A stretch of DNA of 64,000 nucleotides from Acutalibacteraceae bacterium (GCA_963610315.1 CAVDMV010000005.1:22659-86658); one strand, 5' to 3'; shown: positions 2,374-26,772, counted from the first letter of the stretch. The notes: generated from the letters alone by a model not told the origin. Translations and numbers: made by a program.

Positions 2374-2907
2374 ATGAAAATAGGTAAGAAGATTAAAGAG
2401 CTTAGAACCTTATATAACTTGACCCAAGAGGAACTCGCGGATCGTACTGATTTAACTAAAGGTTATATCTCTCAACTTGAGAATGATTTAACTGAACCAA
2501 GCATTTCAACTTTAGTTGATATAGTTAATGCGCTTGGAACTAATTTAAGTGATTTCTTTTCTGAACAATCAAGTGATCAAATCGTATTTTCAACTAATGA
2601 TTATATTGAAAAAGATTATGATGGTTATAAAATTACTTGGTTAGTTAATAACGCACAAAAGAATGAGATGGAACCAATTTTAGTTTCGATTTATCCGCAT
2701 AGTGAAACTGAAAAAGATTATCCTCATGAAGGACAAGAATTCGGCTATGTTTTAGAAGGAGAAATACTTCTTTGCATCGATAGTAAAAAAATCAAAGTAA
2801 AAAAAGGGGAGACTTTCTACTTTGATAGTTCAAAGAATCATTATCTTAAAAATGTTAAAGATAAAATCGCAAAAGTTATTTGGGTTTCAAGCCCACCAAA
2901 CTTTTAA
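2374..2907 (+). CDS. XRE-family HTH transcriptional regulator with C-terminal cupin domain (PuuR-like architecture)
   Basis: N-terminal HTH: IGKKIKELRTLYNLTQEELADRTDLTKGYISQLEN. The C-terminal ~100 aa beta-rich region with G..H..E.GYVLEGE looks like a cupin. It lies immediately upstream of potABCD. Confidence 0.7.
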   Translation: MKIGKKIKELRTLYNLTQEELADRTDLTKGYISQLENDLTEPSISTLVDIVNALGTNLSDFFSEQSSDQIVFSTNDYIEKDYDGYKITWLVNNAQKNEMEPILVSIYPHSETEKDYPHEGQEFGYVLEGEILLCIDSKKIKVKKGETFYFDSSKNHYLKNVKDKIAKVIWVSSPPNF

Positions 2908-2931: not shown

Positions 2932-4449
2932 ATGGCAAACAATGATATTATTTTAGAATTAAAAAATGTTAATAAAGTTTTTGATGATTCATATGCAGTT
3001 GAAAACTTTAATCTCTATGTTAAAAAGGGAGAATTTGTTACTTTCTTAGGCCCTTCTGGATGTGGCAAAACAACTACATTAAGAATGATTGGAGGATTTG
3101 AAGTTCCAACAAGTGGCCAAATCTTATTAAATGGTGAAGATATCGCCCAACTTCCACCATATAAAAGACCGTTAAATACTGTTTTCCAAAGATATGCATT
3201 ATTTCCACATTTAGATGTATACGATAATATTGCATTTGGTCTTAAACTTAAGAAAGTTCCTTATGAAGTAACTAATAAACGTGGTGAAAAAGTTACAAAA
3301 TTTAGACACTATACTCGTGATGAGATAGATACAAAAGTTATTAAAGCTTTAAAAATTGTTGATCTAGAACAATTTGAAAATCGTAATGTTACAACTTTAT
3401 CAGGTGGTCAACAACAAAGAGTCGCGATTGCCCGTGCAATTGTTAATGAACCAGAAATCTTACTTCTTGATGAACCTTTAGGCGCGCTTGATTTAAAGAT
3501 GAGAAAAGAAATGCAACTTGAATTAAAAGAAATGCATCGTAAACTCGGTATTACTTTTATTTATGTTACTCATGACCAAGAAGAAGCTTTAACAATGTCA
3601 GATACAATCGTTGTTATGAAAGATGGCCAAATTCAACAAATTGGTACACCAATGGATATTTATAATGAACCTAAAAATGCTTTCGTTGCAGACTTTATCG
3701 GTGAATCAAATATTTATTTAGGTACAATGATTGGTAAAAAGAAAGTTAGATTCTTAGGTGCATCTTGGGATTGTATTGATGATTTCCCTAAGAACGAAAA
3801 AGTTGATGTAGTAATTAGACCTGAAGATATTAAGATGAATCCAAAAGGCGAAGGTGTCATTGATGCAAAAATCGTCAATAAAATCTTTAAAGGTATTCAT
3901 TATCAATTTACTGCGATGGTCGGTAATTACGAAGTAGAAATTCAATCTACTATTGATCATCCAGTCGGCGAAGAAATCTCATTAACAATTGAACCTTCTT
4001 TAATTCAAATTATGACTAGAGAATTTGTTTCTAACGTTTATGAAGATGCTTATATTAATAAGAATAATCAAGTTGTTTTTGCTGGTGCCTCTTGGGATTG
4101 TGATGTAACAACATTATTAGAAGGATCTTCTTTAGATGAAGAAGGTTACTTAGTTTCTAAAGATGGAACAAAGAAATATGATTTAAATGACTTAGATGTT
4201 ATCGCAGAAGTCGATATGGGTGATATTGAAATTTCTGATAATTTAGACGAAGGTAACATTCAAGGTAATATTATCCAAATGGTTTGGAAAGGTGACCATT
4301 ACCAATTAATTGTAAGAACAGAAGATGAAGAAGACTTTGTAGTTGATACTCAATGGACATGGAATGAAAATGATACTGTCAGCGTTAAAATTGATTCTCC
4401 TAAGATCAAATTAAAATTAAAGGCGGATTTATCTAAGTATGAAATTTAA
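2932..4449 (+). CDS. potA: Spermidine/putrescine ABC transporter ATP-binding protein PotA, extended form (505 aa)
   Basis: Walker A GPSGCGKTT, ABC signature LSGGQQQRVAIARA, Walker B ILLLDEP, H-loop VTHDQ. There is a ~25-aa insertion at VPYEVTNKRGEKVTKFRHYTRDEIDTK. Two C-terminal regulatory-domain repeats begin VRFLGASWDC and VVFAGASWDC. Confidence 0.85.
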   Translation: MANNDIILELKNVNKVFDDSYAVENFNLYVKKGEFVTFLGPSGCGKTTTLRMIGGFEVPTSGQILLNGEDIAQLPPYKRPLNTVFQRYALFPHLDVYDNIAFGLKLKKVPYEVTNKRGEKVTKFRHYTRDEIDTKVIKALKIVDLEQFENRNVTTLSGGQQQRVAIARAIVNEPEILLLDEPLGALDLKMRKEMQLELKEMHRKLGITFIYVTHDQEEALTMSDTIVVMKDGQIQQIGTPMDIYNEPKNAFVADFIGESNIYLGTMIGKKKVRFLGASWDCIDDFPKNEKVDVVIRPEDIKMNPKGEGVIDAKIVNKIFKGIHYQFTAMVGNYEVEIQSTIDHPVGEEISLTIEPSLIQIMTREFVSNVYEDAYINKNNQVVFAGASWDCDVTTLLEGSSLDEEGYLVSKDGTKKYDLNDLDVIAEVDMGDIEISDNLDEGNIQGNIIQMVWKGDHYQLIVRTEDEEDFVVDTQWTWNENDTVSVKIDSPKIKLKLKADLSKYEI

Positions 4450-5227
4450 GAGAAAATATTTATCAATTCCATATTTTTTATTCTTAGTTCTCTTCGTTGT
4501 CGTTCCTGTTTTATTTATCGTTTATTATGCTTTCACTAATAAAGGTGGATCATTCTCTTTCGATAATTTAACTAAGTTCTTCTCTGATTCTTCTAATATC
4601 AATGTCTTATTAATTTCTTTATCATTCGCGATTATTAATACCGTTATTTGTTTAATTATTGGTTATCCTCTCGCGATGATTCTTGCGAATAAAAAATACA
4701 ATAAATCCGCGGTTATCGTTATGATGTTTATTATGCCTATGTGGATTAATTTCGTCATTAGAACATCCGCGACTAGAGATGTTTTAAACTGGATTGGTAT
4801 TTCTACTGGTTCACAATCAACATTAACAACTATTATTGGTTTAGTTTACAACTACTTACCATTTACAATTTTACCTTTATATACAACGATGTTAAAAATG
4901 GATCGTTCCCAAATTGAAGCAAGTAAAGATTTAGGCGCAAACTCATTTCAAACATTCTTTAAGGTAATTATCCCAATGACAATGCCAGGAATTGTTTCCG
5001 CGGCAACCATGGTCTTTATGCCTACTTTATCAAGTTACGTCATCTCAGATATTCTTTCTGAATATAACGTTGTTTTATTTGGTAGTTATATCGACTTATA
5101 TTTCAATCAAGCTGATTGGAACTTTGGATCATTTATGGCTTTAATCATGCTCTTATTAATTGGTTTAAGTGTCTTTATCCAAAGAAAATTCTCAAAAGAT
5201 GAAGGAGGTAGAAGATCTATATGGTAG
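4439..5227 (+). CDS. potB: Polyamine ABC transporter permease PotB
   Basis: Six predicted TM segments. The ABC permease EAA-like loop is EASKDLGANSFQTFFKVIIP. The start overlaps the potA stop. Confidence 0.8.
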   Translation: MKFKRKYLSIPYFLFLVLFVVVPVLFIVYYAFTNKGGSFSFDNLTKFFSDSSNINVLLISLSFAIINTVICLIIGYPLAMILANKKYNKSAVIVMMFIMPMWINFVIRTSATRDVLNWIGISTGSQSTLTTIIGLVYNYLPFTILPLYTTMLKMDRSQIEASKDLGANSFQTFFKVIIPMTMPGIVSAATMVFMPTLSSYVISDILSEYNVVLFGSYIDLYFNQADWNFGSFMALIMLLLIGLSVFIQRKFSKDEGGRRSIW

Positions 5228-6111
5228 AAAATGTTTCTAATAAAAAATCTAATCCATTTACTAAAATTAAAAATTTCTTCATCGATCCAAAAACTCATAA
5301 AGTATCAAAAGAGAATGTCACTAAAGTACTCGCGAAATTCTATATGTACTTTATCTTATTATTAATGTATGCACCTATTATCATCTTAATGATTTTCTCA
5401 TTTACTGAATCAAATGAATTAGGTTGGACTGGTTTTAGCTTTGGTTTATATGTTAAATTATTTCAAAATACAAAACTCATGACCGCGGTAGGAAATACTT
5501 TCTTAATTGCCGTAGTTTCGGCCGTTGTTTCAACTATCTTAGGTACATTAGGTGCGATTGGTACTTTCTACGCATCAAGAAAATATAAAAAGACCGTTGA
5601 AACAATGACTCAACTTCCTGTTGTTAACGCAGAAATTGTTATGGCGTTATCTCTTGCAGTTGTCTTTAAAACTATTAATACAAGCTATACATTCTTTACT
5701 TTATTAATTGGTCATGTCGTTTTAACTGTTGCATTTGTTTATTTAAATGTTAAACCTAAACTCGCTCAAATGGATCCAAATACATATGAAGCAGCTTTAG
5801 ATTTAGGTGCAACTCCAATGCAAGGTTTATTTAAAGTAATTCTTCCAGAAATTATTCCTGGTATTTTATCTGGTTTCTTAATTTCTATTACATTATCTTT
5901 AGATGACTTTGTCATTACTCAATATTTAAAAGAACCTTCTTTTGAAACTATTTCAACATATATTCAAAAGATTGTCGCAAAACACCCAATTCCAGCTGAA
6001 GTAAGAGCTTTAACTACTCTCATTTTCTTAGTAGTTCTTGCTTTTGTTATTGGTATTACTATTTATAATAATAAAAAAGCGAATAAAATCGCTTCAAGTA
6101 GGAGGAAGTAA
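5221..6111 (+). CDS. potC: Polyamine ABC transporter permease PotC
   Basis: Multi-TM protein with EAA loop EAALDLGATPMQGLFKVILPE. The start overlaps the potB stop, and a 40-aa N-terminal extension precedes the first TM. Confidence 0.8.
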   Translation: MVENVSNKKSNPFTKIKNFFIDPKTHKVSKENVTKVLAKFYMYFILLLMYAPIIILMIFSFTESNELGWTGFSFGLYVKLFQNTKLMTAVGNTFLIAVVSAVVSTILGTLGAIGTFYASRKYKKTVETMTQLPVVNAEIVMALSLAVVFKTINTSYTFFTLLIGHVVLTVAFVYLNVKPKLAQMDPNTYEAALDLGATPMQGLFKVILPEIIPGILSGFLISITLSLDDFVITQYLKEPSFETISTYIQKIVAKHPIPAEVRALTTLIFLVVLAFVIGITIYNNKKANKIASSRRK

Positions 6112-7925
6112 TGATGAATAAGAATTTATTAATCGCTAGTTCATTAATTTTATTATTATCATCAAGTGTTGCGATAAATTCTCGTAATGTATCTCCAGTT
6201 AAAGGTGAAGAACTAGTTAGTGATGAATTTAAAGGTCAAACTTTAACTATCTATAACTGTGAAGATTATATTTCTCAAGGTGAAGATGATTCTCGTGATT
6301 TAATTGGTGAATTTGAAGAGATGTATGGAGTTAAAGTTAATTATTATACATATGATACTAATGAAACAATGTATAACCAATTCACTTTACAAAAAGAAGG
6401 AACATACGATTTAATTTGTACTTCTGAATATATGCTTCAAAAAATGGTGAAGAATAACTTACTTGAACCATTAGTTAATAAAGAACAAAATATTCCTAAT
6501 TATTATTCTTATGTTTCACCAACATTACAAGAAAAGCTTGAAAACATGTCTGTTACTCTTAACGGTAAACAAACTAATTTAAGTGATTATGCAGTTGGTT
6601 ACATGTGGGGTACATTAGGTATTATCTATGATCCAAGCGTCAATGACGGAAAAATTCAAGATGATGTAATGAGTTGGGATATCTTATGGAATAGTGATTA
6701 TAAAGATTTAATTTCGATTAAGAATTCAATGAGAGATACTTTCGTTGTTGGCTTAATGCATTATTATTCTCAAGATGAAAACTTTAAGAAAGTAATGGAT
6801 GCTTATTTATCTTCGCCTAGCGAAGAAACTTATGAAGCTTATAATGCTTTAGTTCAAGATACATTTGATTTTAAATTAGATGGAAGCGCGACAAGTGATC
6901 AAGAAAACAAAGAAAAAATTGAAAATGTTAAAAATGAATTAATTTCTTTAAAAGATAATATCTTTGGCTTTGAAGTTGATTCAGGTAAAAATGATATTAT
7001 CACTGGTAAAATTAAATTAAATACAGCTTGGAGTGGTGACGCCGTATATTCAATGCAAACTGCTTTAGAAGAATATGGAAAAGTCTTAGAATATAAAGTT
7101 CCTAATGATGGAGGTAACATCTGGTATGATGGATGGGTTACTCCTAAAGGAGCGAATAAAGAACTCGCTTATAAGTTCTTAGATTTCTTATCTGATCCTT
7201 CTTCTGCCGCGGATAATATGGATTATATCGGTTATACACCATTTGTAGTTGGTGATGATATTTATAATTTAGCCGCGTCTAATTATGGGGTAGGTTCATA
7301 TGATCCTTATATTACTTACTATTATTATCCAGAAGAAGAATATGGCGATTACGTCTATTATGATAATAAGTTATATATGTGTATTAAAGATACAGAAGAA
7401 GGTATCTTACCAACTAATGAAGAATATTTTGAACTTGAAGAATATGATGAAGAATATGCTTATTCTGAAGGTGATATCGTTTCATTAAATGGTAAATTCT
7501 ATAACTGCTTAGAAGATGAACAATTAAATACTTTAGTAGTCGATAGTGAAGGTAATTCTTTAGTCGATAGTTGGGAAGAAAATGTTGGTTATGATTTAAG
7601 CCATTTATTTGAAGGCTCATTTGAAGACGAAAATAGAGAAGCAATCATCTATCCTTTCTTAGGTAGCGAAAACCAACTTGAAACACAATATCCAAGCGAA
7701 GAAATTATCGCTCGTTGCGCGATTATGAATGACTTTGGTGATTATAACGATGCAGTTATTATTATGTGGGGACAAGTTAAAGCTTATACTGATATGACTC
7801 CTATTTATATATTCTTATCTATCGTTGCTTTAATAGGTATTGGAGGAATTTCTTATTCGATCATTAAAAGAAATTTATCCGCGCATTATAAACGTAACGC
7901 GATGAAAAAAGAACAAGCTAAATAA
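6111..7925 (+). CDS. potD: PotD-like polyamine-binding protein, unusually large (604 aa), with N-terminal signal, acidic Tyr-rich insertion and C-terminal TM anchor
   Basis: Signal-like N-terminus MMNKNLLIASSLILLLSSSVAI, then SBP family-1-like sequence (TIYNCEDYI..., LNTAWSGDAVY). An insertion at ~7300-7620 carries two YxxGDxVxxNGKxYxC motifs. The C-terminal hydrophobic helix IYIFLSIVALIGIGGISYSII is followed by KRN. Translationally coupled to potC. Confidence 0.7.
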   Translation: MMNKNLLIASSLILLLSSSVAINSRNVSPVKGEELVSDEFKGQTLTIYNCEDYISQGEDDSRDLIGEFEEMYGVKVNYYTYDTNETMYNQFTLQKEGTYDLICTSEYMLQKMVKNNLLEPLVNKEQNIPNYYSYVSPTLQEKLENMSVTLNGKQTNLSDYAVGYMWGTLGIIYDPSVNDGKIQDDVMSWDILWNSDYKDLISIKNSMRDTFVVGLMHYYSQDENFKKVMDAYLSSPSEETYEAYNALVQDTFDFKLDGSATSDQENKEKIENVKNELISLKDNIFGFEVDSGKNDIITGKIKLNTAWSGDAVYSMQTALEEYGKVLEYKVPNDGGNIWYDGWVTPKGANKELAYKFLDFLSDPSSAADNMDYIGYTPFVVGDDIYNLAASNYGVGSYDPYITYYYYPEEEYGDYVYYDNKLYMCIKDTEEGILPTNEEYFELEEYDEEYAYSEGDIVSLNGKFYNCLEDEQLNTLVVDSEGNSLVDSWEENVGYDLSHLFEGSFEDENREAIIYPFLGSENQLETQYPSEEIIARCAIMNDFGDYNDAVIIMWGQVKAYTDMTPIYIFLSIVALIGIGGISYSIIKRNLSAHYKRNAMKKEQAK

Positions 7926-16679: not shown

Positions 16680-18047
16680 ATGAATAACAAAAAAATTAAT
16701 ATTCTCTTGAGCTTATTAACATTAGTTAGTATTTGCTCATGCGGAAAAACAACTTCAAATAAATATTTTAGTTTAAAAATCTGGACTTATTATAACGGTA
16801 ATACAGAAGCAAGTTTCCAAGATCTCATTAATAATTTTAATGAAACTCGTGGTAAAGAACTTAAAATTGCAGTTTCAAGTCAATCACAAGGTAAAAATGT
16901 TAATGATTTACTTAACGCTCTTACGGATTCCGCGAGTGAAAAACTTGGTTCTGATCCAATGCCAGATATATTTTTAGCCTACCCTGATACAGCATATGAA
17001 TTAGATAAATTAGGTAAAATTGCTTCTTTAAATGATTATTTTTCTACTGAAGAATTTTCTAATTATAATGAAGAATTCTTAAATGAAGGTAAGTTACCTA
17101 ATAGTAATGAATATAAAATTCTTCCAATGTCCAAATCGACTGAAGCTTTATATATTAATAAAACTGATTTAGATAAATTTAATAAAAATTATCCTAATTA
17201 TGCGATAAGTTATGAAGAATTAAGGACTTATGAAGGCATTATTAATGCCTCAAAAAAATATTATGAACAAACCGGTAAAGCTTTCTTTGGACGTGATTCA
17301 CTTGATAATTATTTTGTGGTAGGTGCTAAACAATTAGGTATTGATATCTTAAGATATGATGAAAATAATAATTATGGCATTAACTACGATAAAGAAGTTT
17401 TTAAAAAATTATGGGAATGTTATTACGTTCCATATGTAAAAGGATATTTTTATTCTGAAAGTTCTTTTAGAAGCGGTGATATTAAATCAGGTAATATCAT
17501 TGCTTATGTAGGATCAACTTCTTCTGGAGGCTATTTTCCTTCAAATGTCGTTATTTCAGATAGTGAATCTTATGATATTGAATGTGAGGTTATTAAAGCT
17601 CCAATATTTGATGGCGGCGCGGATGTCGCGATAAGCCAAGGAGCTGGATTTTGCATTACTAAATCGAATAAAGAACAAGAATCTGCCGCGGCTAGTTTCT
17701 TAAAATGGTTATCAGAAAAAGATAATATTAGATCTTTTTCAAATGAAACTGGTTATTTTCCAGCGACTAATGATGGCTTTAGTTATGAATTTATTGCTTC
17801 TCAAAGCGATTCTAAATTTAAACAAAGCTTTACAGTGGCCAAAAATGTTATAAATAATTCTACAATGTATACTAATATTGTTGGTGAAGGTGGAACTTCT
17901 TTACGTAATAAATTAAAGACGAGTTTAGATACTATTTCTAAAGAAGCTCGCGCGAATGTAATAAAATCTTCTTCACAAGAAGAAGCGATAGAAGAATATA
18001 CTTCAGAAACAAAATTTGAAGAATGGTTCAACAGTTTAAATAAATAG
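16680..18047 (+). CDS. Extracellular solute-binding lipoprotein (ABC SBP family-1-like), orphan: no permease or ATPase adjacent
   Basis: Lipoprotein signal MNNKKINILLSLLTLVSICSCG with lipobox VSICSC. The mature part (IWTYYNGNTE..., YPDTAYELDKLGKI) resembles sugar-binding SBPs. Confidence 0.65.
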   Translation: MNNKKINILLSLLTLVSICSCGKTTSNKYFSLKIWTYYNGNTEASFQDLINNFNETRGKELKIAVSSQSQGKNVNDLLNALTDSASEKLGSDPMPDIFLAYPDTAYELDKLGKIASLNDYFSTEEFSNYNEEFLNEGKLPNSNEYKILPMSKSTEALYINKTDLDKFNKNYPNYAISYEELRTYEGIINASKKYYEQTGKAFFGRDSLDNYFVVGAKQLGIDILRYDENNNYGINYDKEVFKKLWECYYVPYVKGYFYSESSFRSGDIKSGNIIAYVGSTSSGGYFPSNVVISDSESYDIECEVIKAPIFDGGADVAISQGAGFCITKSNKEQESAAASFLKWLSEKDNIRSFSNETGYFPATNDGFSYEFIASQSDSKFKQSFTVAKNVINNSTMYTNIVGEGGTSLRNKLKTSLDTISKEARANVIKSSSQEEAIEEYTSETKFEEWFNSLNK

Positions 18048-18056
18048 GTAAGTATT

Positions 18057-20960
18057 ATGTTTTCACGTTTAAAAAAATATCGTAAAAGTATTAACGCTAG
18101 AATAATTACTCCAATTATCCTAGTAACATTAGTTCAAAGTATTGTTGTTATAAGCGTACTTTATTTTAGCGTGATTAAAAATACTATCGATGTTTCCTTA
18201 ATCTCTTCATTTAAAAACGGCGTTACTGTAAGAAAGAATTATTTAGAAACATTAATTACTTCATCTTGGACTAATTTAGAATCATTTAGTTCATCTTTAA
18301 ATTCTAAGACTAATACTTATTTAGAAGAAAAAAATAAAACAGTTGATGATATTATTTCTAATTCAGATGATGCAAAAGATTATTTATATTACACATGTAA
18401 TTTAATTCCTGAACTCATTCAAAATAACCATGTTAATGATGCTTATTTTATTTTAAATAATAATTTTGAAAATGATGATAATAATCTCTTAACATATATT
18501 AGAACAACTAAACCTGGTCGAGTAATTAATAATGAAATTGAAGTTCTTTACGCACCATATGATGTATGGAGATATTATTCAACAGAGGGCTATGTAATTG
18601 ATAAAAATATCGATTCAAATGACTATAGTTCAATAAGTAATTATGAATTTGTTGATAATGCGATTAAATATATTTCTCCTTCTAATGAAAATTCTTCAAT
18701 ACATGGATATTGGTCATCTTTAACTAGAGTCGCGCATAATAAGGTATTAACTTATTCTATTCCTTTCTATTTTAATGATAAATGTTTAGGAGTATTTGGT
18801 ATTGGTATTACAGAAACTTATTTAAGAGATTCTTTATCTAAATTAAATACGGAGGAAGAAGATATTAACTTTGCTTTTATTAAAAAAGTAAATAATAATT
18901 ATCAAGATGGTTTTAAAGCTTATGTCGATTATTCTTTACCTGATTTAGATGATGTAGAACTAGAAGATTCTCTTTATGAAGGTACTAAGCAATTCTATAA
19001 TAATGGAAATCAAACATTCTACTATGAAGAAAAAATTGATCTTTATAATGGAGAGAATATCGATGGAGAAACTTGGTATATAGTTGGAATGGTCGCGTCC
19101 GATTATCTTTTCAGCGTTTCTTATACGACTAGAATTGAAGTAGTATTAATATATGGTATTTCATTCTTTATTATTATTTTAATCTATATCTTAATTGCTT
19201 ATTTAATTTCTCGACCAATAGTACGCGTATCTAATTCGTTAAATGATTTAAATATTTTAAATCTACCTATGACTAATGTCTTAGAAGTCGATAATTTATT
19301 AACAAAGATTAATGATATATCGAGCCGTAATATTTCGTTAAATAATAAACTTAATCGTTTAGTTGAAGATTCTGATTATACTATTTCCTTCTTTGAATAT
19401 TCTAAAAAAGATGATAAAGTTACTATTTCTAACCAATTCTTTGATATGCTAAATATTCCTTCTTTCCAAGAAGAATTAAGTTCAAGAACTTTTATTGCTA
19501 AACTAATGTCATTAAAAAATGATATTATTTCTTCTACATATGATAGATTTGATGAAGAAATTTTAAAATCATCAGGAGAAATAGTTTTCTTTGTTAATCA
19601 TAAATATTATGTTCGACTTAAGATCGTTTCTCAAGATGAAGGGGTAATTGCTTCTTTAATTGATTTAACGCGTGAATATCAAGAAAAAGAAAGAATCGCA
19701 CATGAAAGAGACTATGATGTCTTAACTGGTTTATTAAATAGAAGAGGATTTAGAAATAAAGTTCAACCTCTTTTTGAAAGAGAAGGAACTGGTTCATTTT
19801 TCTCTCTTGATGTTGATAATTTAAAATTCCTCAATGACCAATATGGTCATGATTTAGGTGATACTTATTTAAAGAAGGTTGGCTCATATCTAACTCAAAT
19901 TGAATCTAAATTTAATAATGTGAAAACGTGTCATGTTTCTGGTGATGAATTTATTATTTATCTATATGATTATACTGACTTAAAGGAAGAAAAATTAATA
20001 ATTGAAGAACTAGAAAAAATTAAGAATGAATACATCGATATATTCAATAAGAAAGTTTATATTTCTTTAAGTGTCGGTGTTTGCCGTAGAGAAAAAGGAA
20101 TTTCTTATGAAGAAGTTCGTAAAAGAGCGGATTATACTTTATATTCGGCTAAAAATGATGGTAAAAATAAGATTAATATATTTAATGAAGAAATATTATC
20201 AATGTATAAGAATGAAAGCGTTATGTATGATGATTTAAATAAACTCATACTTAATGAATCAGTCGATTTTGCTTATCAACCAATTGTCGATATTAATAGT
20301 GGGGAAGTCTTAGGTTACGAAGCTTTAATGAGACCTACTTTAGAAGGACTTAATCCAACTAATGTCTTAAATGCCGCGAAAAAGTATTATCGATTATATG
20401 ATATTGAAAGAATTACTTTATTTAATGCGACACAAAAATTTATTGATAGTAAATGCGATAAAGTATTATTTATTAATTCAATTTCTTCTCAAGTTCTTTC
20501 GGATCCCGATTTAGAGGAATATAAGAAAAGATTTAAAGCTCACTTTAATCATATTATCATTGAATTAATTGAAGAAGATTTTGGACAAAATAATGTTGTT
20601 AAAAAGAAGATTGCTTACATTAATGATAATGGCTTAAGATACGCGATAGATGATTATGGAACTGGATATAATAACATTGGTATGATCTTATCTTTTAATC
20701 CAACTTTAGTAAAAATAGAAGGTTCTTTAATTAGAAATATTGATAAAGATCAAAATAAAGAACGTTTAGCTAAATCAATTATCTCTTATTGTAGAGTCAA
20801 TAATATTAAGGTTGTGGCTGAATCAGTAGAAACGATTGAAGAACTTAAATTAGTTAAAACCTTAGGAGTAGATTACGTCCAAGGATATTTCTTAGGTCGA
20901 CCAAATTTAGAAATAAAAGATATTCCATTAGATAAGAAAGAAATCTTAAAAAATTTATAA
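18057..20960 (+). CDS. Membrane sensor with Cache-like periplasmic domain, degenerate GGDEF (SGDEF) and EAL domains (c-di-GMP phosphodiesterase-type)
   Basis: TM1 IITPIILVTLVQSIVVISVLYF, a ~330-aa extracytoplasmic region, then TM2 VVLIYGISFFIIILIYILIAYLI. GGDEF-domain start DVLTGLLNRRGF, with the motif reading HVSGDEFIIY. EAL motifs QPIVD, EALMRP, DDYGTGY, KIEGSLI and QGYFLGRP. Confidence 0.8.
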   Translation: MFSRLKKYRKSINARIITPIILVTLVQSIVVISVLYFSVIKNTIDVSLISSFKNGVTVRKNYLETLITSSWTNLESFSSSLNSKTNTYLEEKNKTVDDIISNSDDAKDYLYYTCNLIPELIQNNHVNDAYFILNNNFENDDNNLLTYIRTTKPGRVINNEIEVLYAPYDVWRYYSTEGYVIDKNIDSNDYSSISNYEFVDNAIKYISPSNENSSIHGYWSSLTRVAHNKVLTYSIPFYFNDKCLGVFGIGITETYLRDSLSKLNTEEEDINFAFIKKVNNNYQDGFKAYVDYSLPDLDDVELEDSLYEGTKQFYNNGNQTFYYEEKIDLYNGENIDGETWYIVGMVASDYLFSVSYTTRIEVVLIYGISFFIIILIYILIAYLISRPIVRVSNSLNDLNILNLPMTNVLEVDNLLTKINDISSRNISLNNKLNRLVEDSDYTISFFEYSKKDDKVTISNQFFDMLNIPSFQEELSSRTFIAKLMSLKNDIISSTYDRFDEEILKSSGEIVFFVNHKYYVRLKIVSQDEGVIASLIDLTREYQEKERIAHERDYDVLTGLLNRRGFRNKVQPLFEREGTGSFFSLDVDNLKFLNDQYGHDLGDTYLKKVGSYLTQIESKFNNVKTCHVSGDEFIIYLYDYTDLKEEKLIIEELEKIKNEYIDIFNKKVYISLSVGVCRREKGISYEEVRKRADYTLYSAKNDGKNKINIFNEEILSMYKNESVMYDDLNKLILNESVDFAYQPIVDINSGEVLGYEALMRPTLEGLNPTNVLNAAKKYYRLYDIERITLFNATQKFIDSKCDKVLFINSISSQVLSDPDLEEYKKRFKAHFNHIIIELIEEDFGQNNVVKKKIAYINDNGLRYAIDDYGTGYNNIGMILSFNPTLVKIEGSLIRNIDKDQNKERLAKSIISYCRVNNIKVVAESVETIEELKLVKTLGVDYVQGYFLGRPNLEIKDIPLDKKEILKNL

Positions 20961-20992: not shown

Positions 20993-21085
20993 TTGATAAA
21001 AAAATATTAAAAACATGTATACAAGCTATTGAAAGCGGTTACAAATTGTTGTAAGATATTAATCGTGAAAGGAAAAACAAAACAT

Positions 21086-23146
21086 ATGAAAAAAAATTTA
21101 AAAGTTTTATGTGGTTTAGCTTTACTTGGAAGTGTAGTAGGTACAACAGTTGGCTGTGGTCCTCGTGAAAATCCATCTTCTTCCTCTAGTAGTAGCGAAT
21201 CTACATCATCACAAGATAGTTCTTCTACTTCTTCAAGTTCTTCAAGTTCATCTAGTTCTTCTGAAGTTAAGAAAATGTTAGAAAAATTAATTGTTGATGC
21301 AAGTTATGCAAAAACCAAATTTAATAAAGGAGAAGATTTCTCAACCGACGGCTTAGAATTAAGAGTCGGATATTCAGATGAATCTGATGGCATTATCTAT
21401 TATGAAAAACTACCTTTAACTAGCGAAGGAGTAAGCATTGATTCATCATCTTATAATAAAGATGCAGTCGGAACATACACCATTTCAGTTTCTTATACTT
21501 ATGATAAAGCAATTAGATATGGTGAATACGTTGTTGAAGTTGTTGATGAATATGACGGCCAATTAGGTATTGATGTCGCAATCGATAGCGCTGACGCAAC
21601 ATTAGCTTTAACTAGCGAAAATAAAACTGCAGATTTAACTTCCTTAGCTTCAAAATTAACTGTTAAAGAAGTTCTCGCAGATGGGACTTTATCTAGTGCG
21701 TTAGAACAAGATAAATACGAAGTTTCTTATTATTCAGGTAATACTAAATTAGATGATGCAACTGCAGTTAGTACAGCAGGTGTTTATCAAATCTGGGTAA
21801 AAACAACATTAACTAGAGATAGTAAGACATTTGACGTTTCTAATTTCGTCTTTGTTTATGTTACAAATGAATTAGTAAGCATTACTTTAAAATCTGATGT
21901 AGGTACATTTACTCAAGAATCAGGTAAAGATGTTATTTCTTCAACATGGGAATTTGTTGCTCATTACGCGAATGAAGAAACTAAAGAATTAACTGCTGAA
22001 GATGTAACAATTGATATTGATACTAAGACTGCAGGAACTGATAAGATAGCAACAGTTACTTATGAAGAAACTGATCCATTAGGAGTGAAAGCTTCTAAGA
22101 GTGTTGGAGTTCCTTATACAATTACTGCAAGTAAAGAAGTAACTACAACTTATGTATATAGATTTAATCCTGCAACTATTACTGAAACTTCAAAATTCAC
22201 AAAAGATATTGATTTAGTAACAGTTGATAAAGAAGGCGTCGCTACTGATACAGTGATGAAATATATTCCAGGATCAAGTGGTAGCCAAATGAAAGATAAG
22301 GCTAAAACATTCACTTTAACTGATGAAACTTCAGTTACTACTTCTAAGGTTTTACAAACTGGTGGAGCATCTAGTGGCTTAACTAGTAGAGTTATAAAAC
22401 TTGATTTACTAGGCGCAAGTGTTATTGATTTATATTTCAGTAGCACTGGTTCAGGAAAAACAGTTGCTGCTTCCTTATTAGATAATACAGGAACAGCAAT
22501 TACAACAACTGATAAAGCTGCTGATGGAGTTACAAAAACTACATTTGAAGTAGATAGTGCAGGTACTTATTATATTTCATTCGATAGTAGCGCAAATATC
22601 TATTATATTGATGTAACTACAACTGTTTCTAATAAACAAGCTAGAACTCCTGAATCATATAATATTACTGAATATACACCTGCTTTCACTGCAGGTGCAG
22701 CGGTTAATAATGTTACATTTGGTGAATTTATTACTTTTGTTGGAGCGGTAGCTAAAGACAAAGATGCTTCTCCTTATAGTAAAGCATGGCAACTAGCTAA
22801 TAAATTAAGCGAAAGTAATAATGTTACTTTAGATTTCTCTACTCTTGATGAAGGAGAAAATGCTACAGTAAAAGTTAAGTTCGCTAGTGGATCTAGTACT
22901 TTAGATGCACGAGCTTTAGGTTTCTTTAAAGCTAATGTATTAAGTGATGCAAACTTAATAACTGCAGTTACAGTTGCTGAAACAACAACTACAAAAGCTG
23001 ATAAAAATATAATGACTTTAGAATATACATTTACTAAAGGAACATATTATATTGGTAGCTTTATTTATAACGCAGATGGTACAACTATTAATACTGGTTC
23101 AAACAAAGGTATTAATATCTTTGCTATTAGCGTTGATTATGAATAG
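21086..23146 (+). CDS. Ser-rich surface lipoprotein with repeated Ig-like / beta-sandwich domains
   Basis: The start is the ATG at 21086 after RBS GAAAGGA. Lipobox LALLGSVVGTTVGCG, followed by a ~45-residue poly-Ser/Thr linker (21170-21290), then ~600 aa of T/V/S-rich beta-strand repeats. Confidence 0.6.
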   Translation: MKKNLKVLCGLALLGSVVGTTVGCGPRENPSSSSSSSESTSSQDSSSTSSSSSSSSSSSEVKKMLEKLIVDASYAKTKFNKGEDFSTDGLELRVGYSDESDGIIYYEKLPLTSEGVSIDSSSYNKDAVGTYTISVSYTYDKAIRYGEYVVEVVDEYDGQLGIDVAIDSADATLALTSENKTADLTSLASKLTVKEVLADGTLSSALEQDKYEVSYYSGNTKLDDATAVSTAGVYQIWVKTTLTRDSKTFDVSNFVFVYVTNELVSITLKSDVGTFTQESGKDVISSTWEFVAHYANEETKELTAEDVTIDIDTKTAGTDKIATVTYEETDPLGVKASKSVGVPYTITASKEVTTTYVYRFNPATITETSKFTKDIDLVTVDKEGVATDTVMKYIPGSSGSQMKDKAKTFTLTDETSVTTSKVLQTGGASSGLTSRVIKLDLLGASVIDLYFSSTGSGKTVAASLLDNTGTAITTTDKAADGVTKTTFEVDSAGTYYISFDSSANIYYIDVTTTVSNKQARTPESYNITEYTPAFTAGAAVNNVTFGEFITFVGAVAKDKDASPYSKAWQLANKLSESNNVTLDFSTLDEGENATVKVKFASGSSTLDARALGFFKANVLSDANLITAVTVAETTTTKADKNIMTLEYTFTKGTYYIGSFIYNADGTTINTGSNKGINIFAISVDYE

Positions 23147-23163
23147 AAAGGGATGATAGATTT

Positions 23164-26100
23164 ATGAAGAAAAAATTATTTTTACAAGGTTCAATTTTAT
23201 TATTATCTGCATTAACTATTACTTCTTTCTCTACAGGTAATACTCCTAAAGTAACGGCAGAAAATAAAACTCCAATTACAACAAATTCTAATAAAGTAAA
23301 TGATAATGTTTCAACTACTTATTATGTTTCTCCTACTGGTAGTAAAACTGGTGATGGAACTGAAGCGAATCCATATGATGTTGTTACATTATTAACATCC
23401 GCGGATATTTTAAAACCAGGTGATACTGTTATTCTTAAACAAGGTACATATTCATTAGGTGATGAAGATAGAATTAAGATTATTTCATCAGGTTCATTTG
23501 AAAAAGTTTTAACTATTAAAGGTGAAGGAGAAGTTAAACTTGATTTCTCTAAGATGAGATTTGATTCTAATAACCGCGGCGTAACTATTGCAGGTGATCA
23601 TATCCTTTGGACAAATATTGATATCTGTGGTGCTGGTGATAACGGTATGTATATCTCTGGTAATTACAATATTGTCTCAGATTGTGAATTCTATAATAAC
23701 CGTGACTCAGGTTTACAATTAGGTCGTGATAATTCAGAACAATCAAATATTGAAGATTGGCCAAGCTACAACCTCATCCAAAACTGTACATCATATAATA
23801 ACTATGATAATGAAACATTTGGTGAAAACGCTGATGGTTTCGCGGCTAAATTAACTGTTGGTTATGGTAACGTATTCGATGGATGTATCGCTTATAGAAA
23901 CTCTGATGATGGTTGGGATTTATATGCAAAAACTGATTCAGGTGATATTGGTTGTATTACTTTATATAACTGCGTATCTTTCGAAAATGGTTATTTATTA
24001 AATACAAAAGCAGAAAATAATGCTAGATTTGAAAAATATAATTCCGCATATGATGAAACTGAAACTAATTCATACATGACTAGAGATGGTGATGGTATTG
24101 GATTTAAATTAGGTGGATCTACTATGAGAGGCGACGTTAAGATGTTTAACTGTCTTTCATTCAACAATAGATTACATGGTGTTGGTGATAACTCTAACCC
24201 AGGTGTCTTATCAGTTGAAAATGTTACTTCTTATAATAACGCAGCAATTATTGATGATGATTCAACAAGTGCAAACTTTGGTAATATTATTCTTGGTACA
24301 TTAGATGGTGATTCTAAATCATCAAATATTGATATGGCTAGAACAGAAAATAGCTATAATAACTATAAAAATATCTTATCAGTTAAAAATGGTGGTTCTT
24401 CTTTAGCGGGAGATGCTTATAGAGGTTCAGCTGAATATTGTATCTTTGATGATGCGGCAGGAAATGCTTATAAAGTAGATTCTTATACTGATGCATCAAG
24501 TTATGTAACTTCAAAGAAAGGTACTAAAGAAACTTCAGTAGTCGCAAGTGATGTATTTGAAGCTTTACCTATTACTTGGACAACTGATGAAAGTGGAGCG
24601 ACTACTTATTCTTATTCTTTAACTGGTAAAAACAATACGACAGTCCATCAAACTTATCGTAATGAAGATGGCTCTATTAATATGGGCAACTTATTAAAGA
24701 TTAAAGACCAAACTAAATTATTTGGTAATGAACATAAGATTGGTGCTTCATTAAGTGAAACTAGCTACGTAGAATATACTCATCCATATGAAGAAATCGC
24801 TAACGCAACTAGTGATAAAGATTTCTTATTAATGGCTGCTAGAAACGCTTTATATTTAAATACTGATGAAGAAGCAGTCTATCAAGACTTTAACCTTATT
24901 ACTAAGATTTTAGGATGTAACGTCGCTTGGAGTTCTTCTGATACATCAGTCATTAAGATTGGTGCTTCATATAACGATTCTCGTTCATCTTCTGAATTTG
25001 TTAGAGCGATTGTTTATAGACCTAATGAAGATAAAGATGTTACATTAACTGCAACACTTGTCTATTATGGACAAACTATTACTCAATCATTTACTGTTAA
25101 AGTAAAGGCGGCTGCTCCAGAACTTGGCGAAATGAATGTTCTTGGCTTAGAAAAATCACGTATTATCGTTGATCAATACCAAGCTTATACTTTACCAGAA
25201 GTTCAAATTGAAGATGGCTCTGACTATAATGGTAAATTATTACCAAGTAGTTCATATTCTTTAAAAACTAAAGTTGAATATGCTTCTGATAAGAACGCAA
25301 CTTATCATGAAATCGCTCAATTTACGACTTCAAAAGCTGGTGTTTATAAGATTACAAAAACAGCAACATTAGGTGAAACATCATCTTCATTAACATTCTA
25401 TGTTTATGTTGCTAGTAAAGATGCAAATGTTGATTTTGAAAAAGATGGAACAGGTGCAAGTACTGCTTCAGTAATTGTTAATAAAACTGGTTATCGAATT
25501 GAAGGTAACTTAACTAATGTTACTGGTTCAATCTATGCATTATCTTCAAAAGACGCGATTAGTGATATTACTGCTGACTACGTTAAAGAACATGGTCAAG
25601 GTTACACATTTAGAGATGACTCAGTTGCTTGTTCATTTGAAAATAATAATAATGAAGGTTATCACATCTATTACGTATTAACTAACGCAAATGGTAAAGT
25701 TACTAGTGCAGTTTATGAAAAAGAAATTTCAACTGTTTCTATTTCAACTGCAGAAGAATTTAAAGCATTCGCGGCAAGTAACGAATCAACTAAGATTTAT
25801 ACTTTAGAAGCAGATATTGACTTATCTTCAACTACTTGGACAGGTAATGATTACACATTAAAAGGCTTATTAAATGGTAAAGGTCATACTGTTAAGAACG
25901 CAAATGTTGCTTCAGCAAGTAATGGTGCTTCCTTATTTAACAAAGCTTCTGGTGGTACTTTAGAAAATGTTAGATTTGAAAACTTAACATTTACTAATGC
26001 TTCAGGAAAACAAAGAGCAGGTATTATCGCTCAAGCTGAAAGAGGCGATTTCTATAACATTCAATTAAGAAATGTTGTTGCAACTGGAGGATCAGGTAGA

Positions 26101-26772
26101 AATGGTGCTTTAATCGCTCAAATCGTTGAAAAGAATGGTTCTGAAGTTAATATTGATCAAGTTTCATTAATTAACGATGCAGATAAAGTTATCGGTGGTA
26201 CTGCAGATGTCGGCGGTATTGTTGGTATGATTCAAGCTACATCAGGCTCATACGGAACAACTAGAATCTCTAATATTTATATTGATGCTACAATTTCAGC
26301 AGGTGGATCTAACTATGCAGGTTCTGTTGTTGGTAGATATGGTGAAAGAGAAAACGAAGTTCTAGAAATTAACCATGTATATTCAAAAGCAACCGTTAAA
26401 GGTAATACTTATGTTGGAGGTATTATCGGAGCTCACCAAAATTCTGCAGGTACAATGGATGTAAGATATTGTGCATTTACAGGTGAATTATATTATGGTT
26501 CTAACTTAGAAAAAGTTGTTTCTGCTCAAAAGAATTGTTCAAATATCGTTGGTAGATATTCAGGTGTTACAACATTATCAAAAGTTATTTGTTGTTATGC
26601 TCCATTTGAAGAAGCTAACTCAAATTATGATGTTAATGTCTATGATGTCGCTGATTTACAAAATGAATACTTCTATTCTCATAACATTGAATTAGATGTT
26701 AAAGATAGATGGACATTTGATGAAGCTACAAAAACTATTTCATTAAATTTCATTGATACTTGGTCTAAGTAA
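23164..26772 (+). CDS. Large secreted right-handed beta-helix protein (DUF1565 / pectate-lyase-fold) with C-terminal GLUG-motif repeats; putative polysaccharide lyase or adhesin
   Basis: Signal peptide MKKKLFLQGSILLLSALTITSFS. N-terminal YYVSPTGSKTGDGTEANPYDVVTLL...PGDTVILKQGTY is typical of pectate-lyase-like beta-helix proteins, followed by repeated N.xGxxI.G...N coils. The C-terminal region has GLUG-like repeats (KGLLNGKGHTVKN, VGGIVGMI, AGSVVGRY, VGGIIGAH). Confidence 0.6.
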   Translation: MKKKLFLQGSILLLSALTITSFSTGNTPKVTAENKTPITTNSNKVNDNVSTTYYVSPTGSKTGDGTEANPYDVVTLLTSADILKPGDTVILKQGTYSLGDEDRIKIISSGSFEKVLTIKGEGEVKLDFSKMRFDSNNRGVTIAGDHILWTNIDICGAGDNGMYISGNYNIVSDCEFYNNRDSGLQLGRDNSEQSNIEDWPSYNLIQNCTSYNNYDNETFGENADGFAAKLTVGYGNVFDGCIAYRNSDDGWDLYAKTDSGDIGCITLYNCVSFENGYLLNTKAENNARFEKYNSAYDETETNSYMTRDGDGIGFKLGGSTMRGDVKMFNCLSFNNRLHGVGDNSNPGVLSVENVTSYNNAAIIDDDSTSANFGNIILGTLDGDSKSSNIDMARTENSYNNYKNILSVKNGGSSLAGDAYRGSAEYCIFDDAAGNAYKVDSYTDASSYVTSKKGTKETSVVASDVFEALPITWTTDESGATTYSYSLTGKNNTTVHQTYRNEDGSINMGNLLKIKDQTKLFGNEHKIGASLSETSYVEYTHPYEEIANATSDKDFLLMAARNALYLNTDEEAVYQDFNLITKILGCNVAWSSSDTSVIKIGASYNDSRSSSEFVRAIVYRPNEDKDVTLTATLVYYGQTITQSFTVKVKAAAPELGEMNVLGLEKSRIIVDQYQAYTLPEVQIEDGSDYNGKLLPSSSYSLKTKVEYASDKNATYHEIAQFTTSKAGVYKITKTATLGETSSSLTFYVYVASKDANVDFEKDGTGASTASVIVNKTGYRIEGNLTNVTGSIYALSSKDAISDITADYVKEHGQGYTFRDDSVACSFENNNNEGYHIYYVLTNANGKVTSAVYEKEISTVSISTAEEFKAFAASNESTKIYTLEADIDLSSTTWTGNDYTLKGLLNGKGHTVKNANVASASNGASLFNKASGGTLENVRFENLTFTNASGKQRAGIIAQAERGDFYNIQLRNVVATGGSGRNGALIAQIVEKNGSEVNIDQVSLINDADKVIGGTADVGGIVGMIQATSGSYGTTRISNIYIDATISAGGSNYAGSVVGRYGERENEVLEINHVYSKATVKGNTYVGGIIGAHQNSAGTMDVRYCAFTGELYYGSNLEKVVSAQKNCSNIVGRYSGVTTLSKVICCYAPFEEANSNYDVNVYDVADLQNEYFYSHNIELDVKDRWTFDEATKTISLNFIDTWSK

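Follow-up and report, generated by a model that had tools for sequence, protein, structure and literature searches.

A PotD-type polyamine receptor with two inserted CBM5/12-like modules and a predicted C-terminal membrane anchor

The potD-like gene at positions 6111..7925 of a 64,000-nucleotide stretch of DNA from an Acutalibacteraceae bacterium (GCA_963610315.1, CAVDMV010000005.1:22659-86658; hereafter the window, with a G+C content of ~28%) encodes a protein of 604 residues; all window features given below lie on the plus strand. The protein is the substrate-binding subunit of a PotABCD-type polyamine ATP-binding cassette (ABC) importer, and two homologues of carbohydrate-binding module (CBM) family 5/12 are set within its binding domain. 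As an overall explanation, we consider it likely that the protein is a membrane-anchored PotABCD polyamine receptor whose inserted CBM5/12-fold modules have probably been repurposed. An earlier note, made from the DNA sequence, had described the product as nearly twice the length of a normal PotD, and the confirmed open reading frame (ORF) bears this out, given that PotD of E. coli has 348 residues.

The first gene of the cluster (2374..2907) encodes a regulator with an XRE-type helix-turn-helix domain and a cupin domain (Pfam HTH_3 and Cupin_2), which matches NCBIfam PuuR over its full length (E 2.8e-29) without reaching the equivalog cutoff. It is followed by the ABC ATPase gene potA (2932..4449; NCBIfam PotA models, E 1e-120 to 5e-152) and by the permease genes potB (4439..5227; NCBIfam PotB, E 1e-46) and potC (5221..6111; NCBIfam PotC, E 5e-53). 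In the junction sequence, the TAA stop of potC and the ATG of the potD-like gene overlap as TAATG, and a Shine-Dalgarno-like AGGAGGA (6100..6106) is found 4 nucleotides upstream of that ATG; the potD-like gene is translationally coupled to potC. The order potA-potB-potC-potD is common to the related loci that reach far enough upstream, within a set of 47 loci from public metagenome bins that serve as species-representative genomes. Since the PuuR-like regulator is kept upstream of potA in most of these loci, the comparison suggests that the operon may be polyamine-responsive. A 99%-identical relative has the same operon, and the identical protein is on record in NCBI without a name; it was not present in the contig collection searched.

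The first part of the PotD-type core comprises residues 40-396 (6228..7298). Pfam assigns SBP_bac_8 (residues 64-378, E 4e-19) and SBP_bac_6 to the protein, and the best PDB sequence matches, over residues 42-216 and 265-376, are PotD of S. pneumoniae, Listeria and E. coli (E 3e-29 to 1e-24). An AlphaFold2 model of the full protein, built on 67 family sequences, has a mean predicted local distance difference test score (pLDDT) of 90.1 and a predicted template-modelling score (pTM) of 0.84. When this model was searched against the PDB with Foldseek, the top 30 matches were all polyamine receptors (PotD, PotF, SpuD/E and TpPotD; E 9e-22 to 1e-16, template-modelling score ~0.7 on target), in agreement with the PotD-like core proposed earlier. 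With PotD of E. coli (1POT, 8Y5H/8Y5I), S. pneumoniae (4EQB) and Listeria (4GL0) the protein shares the two-lobe fold (Foldseek E 1e-18 to 1e-21), the operon partners and most pocket residues, but identity is only ~26-28% and it adds insertions at residues 217-265 and 397-511. The best NCBIfam model is PotD (99 bits, equivalog cutoff 582), with PotF at 71 bits (cutoff 636); as neither cutoff is reached, the protein is regarded as a homologue and not as an equivalog.

Pocket residues were mapped by aligning E. coli PotD with the protein and its family members. Seven of the 13 ligand residues of E. coli PotD are identical (Y37, S83, Y85, W229, W255, D257 and Y293) and two are conservatively changed (E36D and E171D). 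Roles have been described in E. coli PotD for E36, D168, E171, D257, W34, Y37, W229, W255 and Y293 (PMC11414716). By this alignment, the aromatic-acidic polyamine pocket is largely retained in the PotD/PotF-fold core, and the protein is assigned as a polyamine-type receptor whose pocket predicts a polyamine-like ligand, the exact preference not being readable from sequence.

The first of the two insertions is helical (residues 217-265, 6759..6905), appears as a gap in the PotD alignments, and carries modelled helices at residues 223-234, 238-252 and 260-280. It is conserved across the family and, given that the NCBIfam model of a Mycoplasma PotC-PotD fusion matches residues 61-318 in one stretch, this model spans it. 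In E. coli PotD, the surfaces that dock to PotBC are Y56/T58 and D212-E222 (PMC11414716). The site of the second insertion, which bears the modules, lies outside both of them, and in the family the loop equivalent to D212-E222 hardly varies (E288, D290, G292, K293, D295 and G299).

The second insertion (residues 397-511, 115 residues, 7299..7643) is acidic, Tyr-rich and predicted to be folded. In an alignment with E. coli PotD and module-free homologues, it takes the place of a short loop near residues ~303-311 of E. coli PotD. Past it, the PotD fold resumes at residues 512-560 (7644..7790), which hold the last strands and the C-terminal helix of the fold (modelled strand 512-515, helix 543-558); there, ETQYPSEEIIARCAIMNDFG...WGQVKA aligns with the C-terminal KTLYPDAETIKNGEWQNDVG...YQKLKA of E. 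coli PotD. Thus, the segment is a true insertion in a surface loop and not a C-terminal appendage. The local alignment of the PotD C terminus scores 34 against 23 +/- 4 for shuffled sequences, which is weak. A first MAFFT alignment had forced the E. coli PotD C terminus into the insert, and was replaced by the local alignment together with the alignment to module-free homologues.

The insert reaches a pLDDT of 90-97 within the full model and of 90.0 when modelled alone, with beta-hairpins at residues 414-424 and 456-466. The earlier note had suggested a structure prediction and a domain search as checks, and rather than a disordered segment lacking any match to a hidden Markov model (HMM), the insert is predicted to fold as beta-hairpin units and is matched by the Pfam CBM_5_12 model. 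Foldseek retrieved mostly chitin-directed enzymes that bear CBM5/12 domains (a Vibrio chitin oligosaccharide deacetylase with two CBM12 domains, ChiC, ChiA1 and ChiB), with a template-modelling score of 0.71 on the ChiA1 target (1ED7); E-values were weak (3e-3 to 1), as the domains are small (~45 residues). Several phage tail fibres are also present in this list. In the model, the insert appears to be rigidly packed on the core rather than tethered. Classical CBMs attach via flexible linkers, and canonical CBM5/12 domains are appended by a linker to chitin-active enzymes, whereas the modules described here lie within the domain of a polyamine receptor and lack a surface-Trp column.

Within the insert, module 1 spans residues 401-446 (7311..7448) and module 2 residues 447-497 (7449..7601). 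The two motifs quoted in the earlier note are both present in this acidic, Tyr-rich segment, namely EEYGDYVYYDNKLYMCIKD at residues 409-427 (7335-7391) and YSEGDIVSLNGKFYNCLED at residues 451-469 (7461-7517). Pfam CBM_5_12 (PF02839) matches module 2 at residues 444-467 with E 8e-6 and 26.2 bits, which is exactly the gathering score, and the isolated insert scores 27.4 bits. The model matches 53 of 67 family members at E <= 0.01, the best value being 6e-11. Module 1 alone gave no Pfam call; its profile aligns to that of module 2 in hhalign with 97.4% probability (E 1.3e-11; each profile built from 121 sequences), and both profiles recover, in large multi-repeat proteins, repeats for which Pfam makes an independent CBM_5_12 call. 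Moreover, the module HMMs align the chitin-binding domain of ChiA1 (16 bits for module 1 and 22 bits for module 2); the ChiA1 sequence used agrees in length and at residues 6-26 with the 1ED7 match. The same domain, 1ED7, is the best PDB sequence match of the insert, at a non-significant E of 0.24. The beta-hairpin fold and the core motif Y..G..V.Y.GK.Y.C are shared with ChiA1 of B. circulans (1ED7), ChiC of S. griseus (2D49) and ChiB of Serratia (1E15), and the Vibrio deacetylase (3WX7, 4NYU) has a tandem CBM12 pair comparable to the two modules. We conclude that the two modules are CBM5/12 homologues. A simple tandem duplication is not claimed as the origin of the pair: module 2 is nearer to canonical CBM5/12 than module 1, so that a second acquisition would fit too.

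The closest relatives of the insert outside the PotD family are metagenome representatives of 800-3,400 residues with 5-14 CBM_5_12 repeats (P0122, P0124, P0130 and P0137). Another protein, P0143 (454 residues), combines a collagen repeat with a CBM.

The quoted motif Y..GD.V.Y.GK.Y.C covers only positions 1-24 of the 44-position Pfam profile, a stretch which we take to be the structural core of the ChiA1 fold and not its sugar-binding surface. In CBM5/12 domains, solvent-exposed Trp and Tyr residues contact chitin (of the type of ChiA1 W687 and ChiB W479/Y481). Presumably, ChiA1 W687 is critical for chitin binding; the module-closing aromatic at residue 488 corresponds to the core residue W696 of ChiA1. 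When mapped by eye, the position of W687 is occupied in module 1 by Ile or Val. From the first hairpin to the module-closing aromatic, this position included, none of the columns shows Trp in more than 5 of the 121 sequences; within the whole insert only three columns exceed that number, at residues 445 (6 sequences), 463 (9) and 488 (62). Given that the motif corresponds to the first 24 of 44 profile positions and that no such Trp column is found, carbohydrate binding cannot be assumed.

The second distinguishing property of the insert is its acidity. Residues 396-530 contain 18.5% Glu, 14% Tyr and 8% Asp, and the net charge of the insert per 100 residues is -25 in this protein and -19 on average over 121 sequences. 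On the same scale, the family core has -8, E. coli PotD has -3, and most multi-CBM proteins lie between -1 and -8; ChiA1 has +2, against ~-20 in the modules of this family. Compared with canonical modules, their negative charge is about tenfold higher. The module-free loop at the same site in clostridial homologues reaches -40 to -46. Among the 50 ORFs of the window, the 604-residue protein is the most acidic (-9.9, versus a mean of -1.3 with a standard deviation of 3.3); the other binding protein of the window (16680-18047) has -2.9 on that scale.

At the N terminus, a signal peptide-like segment was found at residues 1-22 (6111..6176) by hydropathy, modelled as a helix (residues 2-22) of low pLDDT that is followed by a low-confidence linker (residues 23-34). 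The hydrophobic stretch (residues 4-24) contains no Cys, and the signal peptide is thus without a lipobox Cys, as had been stated. SVA/IN is a possible signal-peptidase I site, at which the precursor may be cleaved. The organism itself makes lipoproteins, as seen from the lipobox-like N terminus of the binding protein at 16680-18047. At the other end, a transmembrane helix is predicted at residues ~562-585 (7794..7865), in a hydrophobic stretch at 559-586, with hydropathy up to 2.26 and a modelled helix at 563-603 that starts ~4 residues past the last binding-domain helix (543-558). The hydrophobic C-terminal helix and KRN reported before are both present, together with a Lys/Arg-rich tail, KRNLSAHYKRNAMKKEQAK (7866..7922). 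By the positive-inside rule this tail is predicted to be cytoplasmic, an arrangement that would hold the outside domain very near the membrane. A C-terminal transmembrane segment occurs in 46 of the 47 related proteins; L043, the only one without it, is truncated at the end of its locus. In 21 of 168 relatives, a lipobox-like N terminus (e.g., LTGCSS or LSGCQN; P0004, P0012, P0049, L029 and L042) stands alongside the C-terminal helix, and these proteins may be anchored at both ends.

The tail anchor had also been called unusual. The anchor itself is there, but it is not novel, since phytoplasma PotD proteins have been reported with a C-terminal transmembrane domain (PMC8026896), archaeal oligopeptide-binding proteins pair a signal peptide that is cleaved off with a transmembrane segment at the C terminus (PMC3387779), and module-free clostridial homologues share it. 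On the tree, phytoplasmas fall into the same broad group related to Acholeplasma. The oligopeptide-binding proteins of Sulfolobus and Aeropyrum, which combine a signal-peptidase I site with the C-terminal anchor (PMC3387779) as the present protein may do, are of another binding-protein class and another domain of life; a glycosylated stalk rich in Ser and Thr precedes their anchor, whereas in the present protein the anchor follows with nearly no linker. PotD of E. coli, S. pneumoniae and Listeria is soluble or lipid-anchored, in contrast to retention by a C-terminal transmembrane helix. In Mycoplasma, the receptor is likewise kept at the permease, but by a PotC-PotD fusion (NF043073, MMSYN1_0195) instead of a tail anchor; the fusion model has ~150 positions past the matched part, against 286 residues in the 604-residue protein, which we read as leaving no room for a CBM insert. 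A tail anchor may thus take the place of a lipid in keeping a binding protein at its permease.

A word-indexed protein search returned 2,689 homologues. The best 120 of these are all 567-604 residues long, and in about half of them PF02839 is precomputed beside families of solute-binding proteins; the few named homologues are called "extracellular solute-binding protein" or "spermidine/putrescine-binding". The claim that this is not a described architecture therefore stands for the literature that was searched, where nothing relevant to a CBM-bearing polyamine- or solute-binding protein was found, but not for sequence databases, as many of the 2,689 matches combine PF02839 with PF13416. The variant is common in metagenome databases and was not found described in the searchable literature. 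The 47 loci are from gut bins labelled Anaeroplasma, Acholeplasmatales, Coprobacillus sp. CAG:698 and CAG:826, Erysipelotrichaceae and Bacilli, and the nearest relatives are low-GC gut Bacilli metagenome bins (Anaeroplasma, Acholeplasmatales and Coprobacillus CAG:698/826 labels). Some bin labels are untrustworthy: the sources of two relatives with 94% and 83% identity are implausibly labelled Azospirillum sp. CAG:239 (L001) and Lachnospiraceae (L003), and one labelled Prevotella sp. (L010) has the same PotD coordinates and identity as one labelled Anaeroplasma (L009).

Arranged by identity, the relatives form a graded series. It starts with E. coli PotD, which lacks both insert and anchor. In two clostridial homologues (L045 and L046, 31-36% identity) the transmembrane helix is present, with a loop of only 20-24 residues and no module at the site; one module and the anchor are found in relatives at 44-51% identity; and the present protein and relatives that are at least 53% identical have two modules. 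As the anchor is present without modules in relatives, the tail anchor predates the modules. Pfam CBM_5_12 is absent in seven of the eight one-module proteins scanned, with a weak match (E 0.01) in the eighth (L020). The family profiles recognise these forms with E down to 5e-11, and their assignment to CBM5/12, which is made only via the family HMMs, is a transitive inference. By these sequence comparisons, the site loop is one that has accepted modules repeatedly; a surface loop of a binding protein can thus take whole extra modules, graded from 0 to ~3. One relative (L018, 6001-7914, 642 residues) has an apparent third, degenerate CBM-like module (YDSLLIDGDNLYWC). In L045, a long poly-acidic tail, which would be cytoplasmic, follows the transmembrane helix.

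Based on these features, we propose that the 604-residue protein would be exported via its N-terminal signal peptide and would remain at the cell surface with the topology of a type I membrane protein, a retention suggested by the transmembrane helix that directly follows the last binding-domain helix with nearly no linker. The receptor would be held beside PotBC, as is done elsewhere by a lipid anchor or a permease fusion, and spermidine or putrescine would be caught in the inter-lobe cleft and handed to PotBC, as by E. coli PotD. The modules, as judged from their sequence, are probably repurposed and not a classical chitin anchor. Since polyamine pockets are acidic and aromatic and the substrate is a polycation, we prefer, as a tentative reading, that the modules form a fixed acidic, Tyr-rich display surface, which would either draw in the polycationic substrate or enrich it beforehand, or else set the orientation of the tethered receptor. 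That the CBM5/12 fold was turned into a polycation capture surface, as an antenna or a second site of low affinity enriching spermidine or putrescine near the cleft, we hold to be rather unlikely.

Several points weigh against this explanation. The NCBIfam equivalog cutoffs are far from reached (99 bits versus 582 for PotD), and four of the 13 ligand residues are altered (W34C/V, T35E, D168S and Q327M), so that the substrate could be another polyamine or amine. The rigid packing of the insert is read from pLDDT and pTM alone. In the divergent second half of the modules the alignment was made by eye, and the Trp argument depends on this alignment and on the role we assume for ChiA1 W687; in addition, 14 insert columns are at least 70% aromatic and Tyr-rich, which could form a sugar-binding face. 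Moreover, we know of no precedent for a substrate-attracting function.

It is doubtful, in our assessment, that the modules are working glycan binders, as the earlier note implied, by which the receptor or the cell would be fixed to a polysaccharide surface (chitin, another polymer containing N-acetylglucosamine, the cell's own surface glycan or host mucin). Such a role would be in keeping with the genuine CBM5/12 homology and fold match, the many conserved Tyr residues, a copy number of 0 to 3, which is typical of avidity modules, and the occurrence of similar modules as 5-14 tandem repeats in very large, adhesin-like metagenome proteins; besides, CBM5/12 domains count as chitin binders and occur as well on surface proteins that are not glycosidases (PMC3267712). 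It is at odds with the lack of a Trp-rich column where canonical modules have their surface Trp, with an extreme acidity unlike that of canonical modules, and with the modelled position of the modules, which lie inside the fold, are confidently predicted together with the core and show no flexible linker. No further CBM module outside this gene and no chitin-related gene came up when the window and the 47 loci were searched. Peptidoglycan was rated an unlikely ligand, as the family spans lineages predicted to be walled (L015, CAG:698) and lineages predicted to lack peptidoglycan (L042, CAG:826); most CAG:698 species are predicted to have a thin wall and CAG:826 to be peptidoglycan-deficient (PMC10868615).

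We also think it unlikely that the insert is purely architectural, i.e., a rigid brace or spacer without a ligand of its own that sets the height and orientation of the receptor, or a contact to a PotB/PotC loop. The anchored homologues L045 and L046 do without any module, the copy number differs between close lineages, which would be odd for a precise spacer, and the position-specific acidic and aromatic conservation (PTNEEYFE, EYD and YDL) suggests more than bulk. Nevertheless, several features suit such a brace: only ~4 residues separate the binding domain from the transmembrane helix, the insert emerges just ahead of the last elements leading to the anchor and is modelled with high confidence within the full-length protein, the anchor is present in every module-bearing relative, and an acidic surface would presumably be repelled by an anionic membrane. 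Finally, it is very improbable that the protein is a polyamine sensor or adhesin signalling to another membrane protein, like NspS with MbaA, instead of a transport receptor: although PotD-like proteins can be signalling receptors (PMC9993111) and a GGDEF-EAL membrane protein is encoded in the window (18057-20960), the gene overlaps potC and follows potABC wherever related loci reach far enough upstream, the loop equivalent to the PotBC-docking D212-E222 is nearly invariant, and the GGDEF-EAL gene, 10 kb away, has its own adjacent binding protein.

Returning to the receptor with a putative acidic display surface, a module annotated as "carbohydrate-binding" may do a different job here. If acidic modules do aid the capture of polycations, high-affinity scavenging would have a new design principle, and CBM-based annotation would call for caution; if the modules acted as an antenna, the protein would be a binding protein with its own substrate-concentrating domain, a neofunctionalised CBM. 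If, alternatively, they bind a glycan, polyamine uptake would be physically coupled to surface attachment. The family appears to be the standard PotD of reduced-genome gut Bacilli. RF39, RFN20, ML615J-28 and Anaeroplasma have minimal metabolic capabilities (PMC10868615), and polyamine uptake is likely to be important for such organisms.

Within the operon, PotA has 505 residues, compared with the 378 positions of the NCBIfam E. coli PotA model, and the long form is kept in related loci. Pfam matches it to ABC_tran and to TOBE_2 in two stretches, and its C terminus carries an extra, duplicated second TOBE-like domain (FLGASWDC..., then FAGASWDC...).

Further along the window, the gene at 16680-18047 encodes a lipobox-bearing, sugar-type binding protein (PDB 7bvt, E 3e-8). 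It is followed after 9 nucleotides by a gene for a 967-residue protein (18057-20960) with a transmembrane segment, an outside domain of ~315 residues, a second transmembrane segment, and GGDEF and EAL domains. The pair (16680-20960) recalls the NspS-MbaA type, in which a binding protein signals to an enzyme of cyclic di-GMP. Two large probable surface proteins are encoded at 21029-26772: the first ORF (705 residues) is lipoprotein-like with a long poly-Ser linker and no Pfam match, and the second (1,202 residues) has a signal peptide and one aBig_2 domain.

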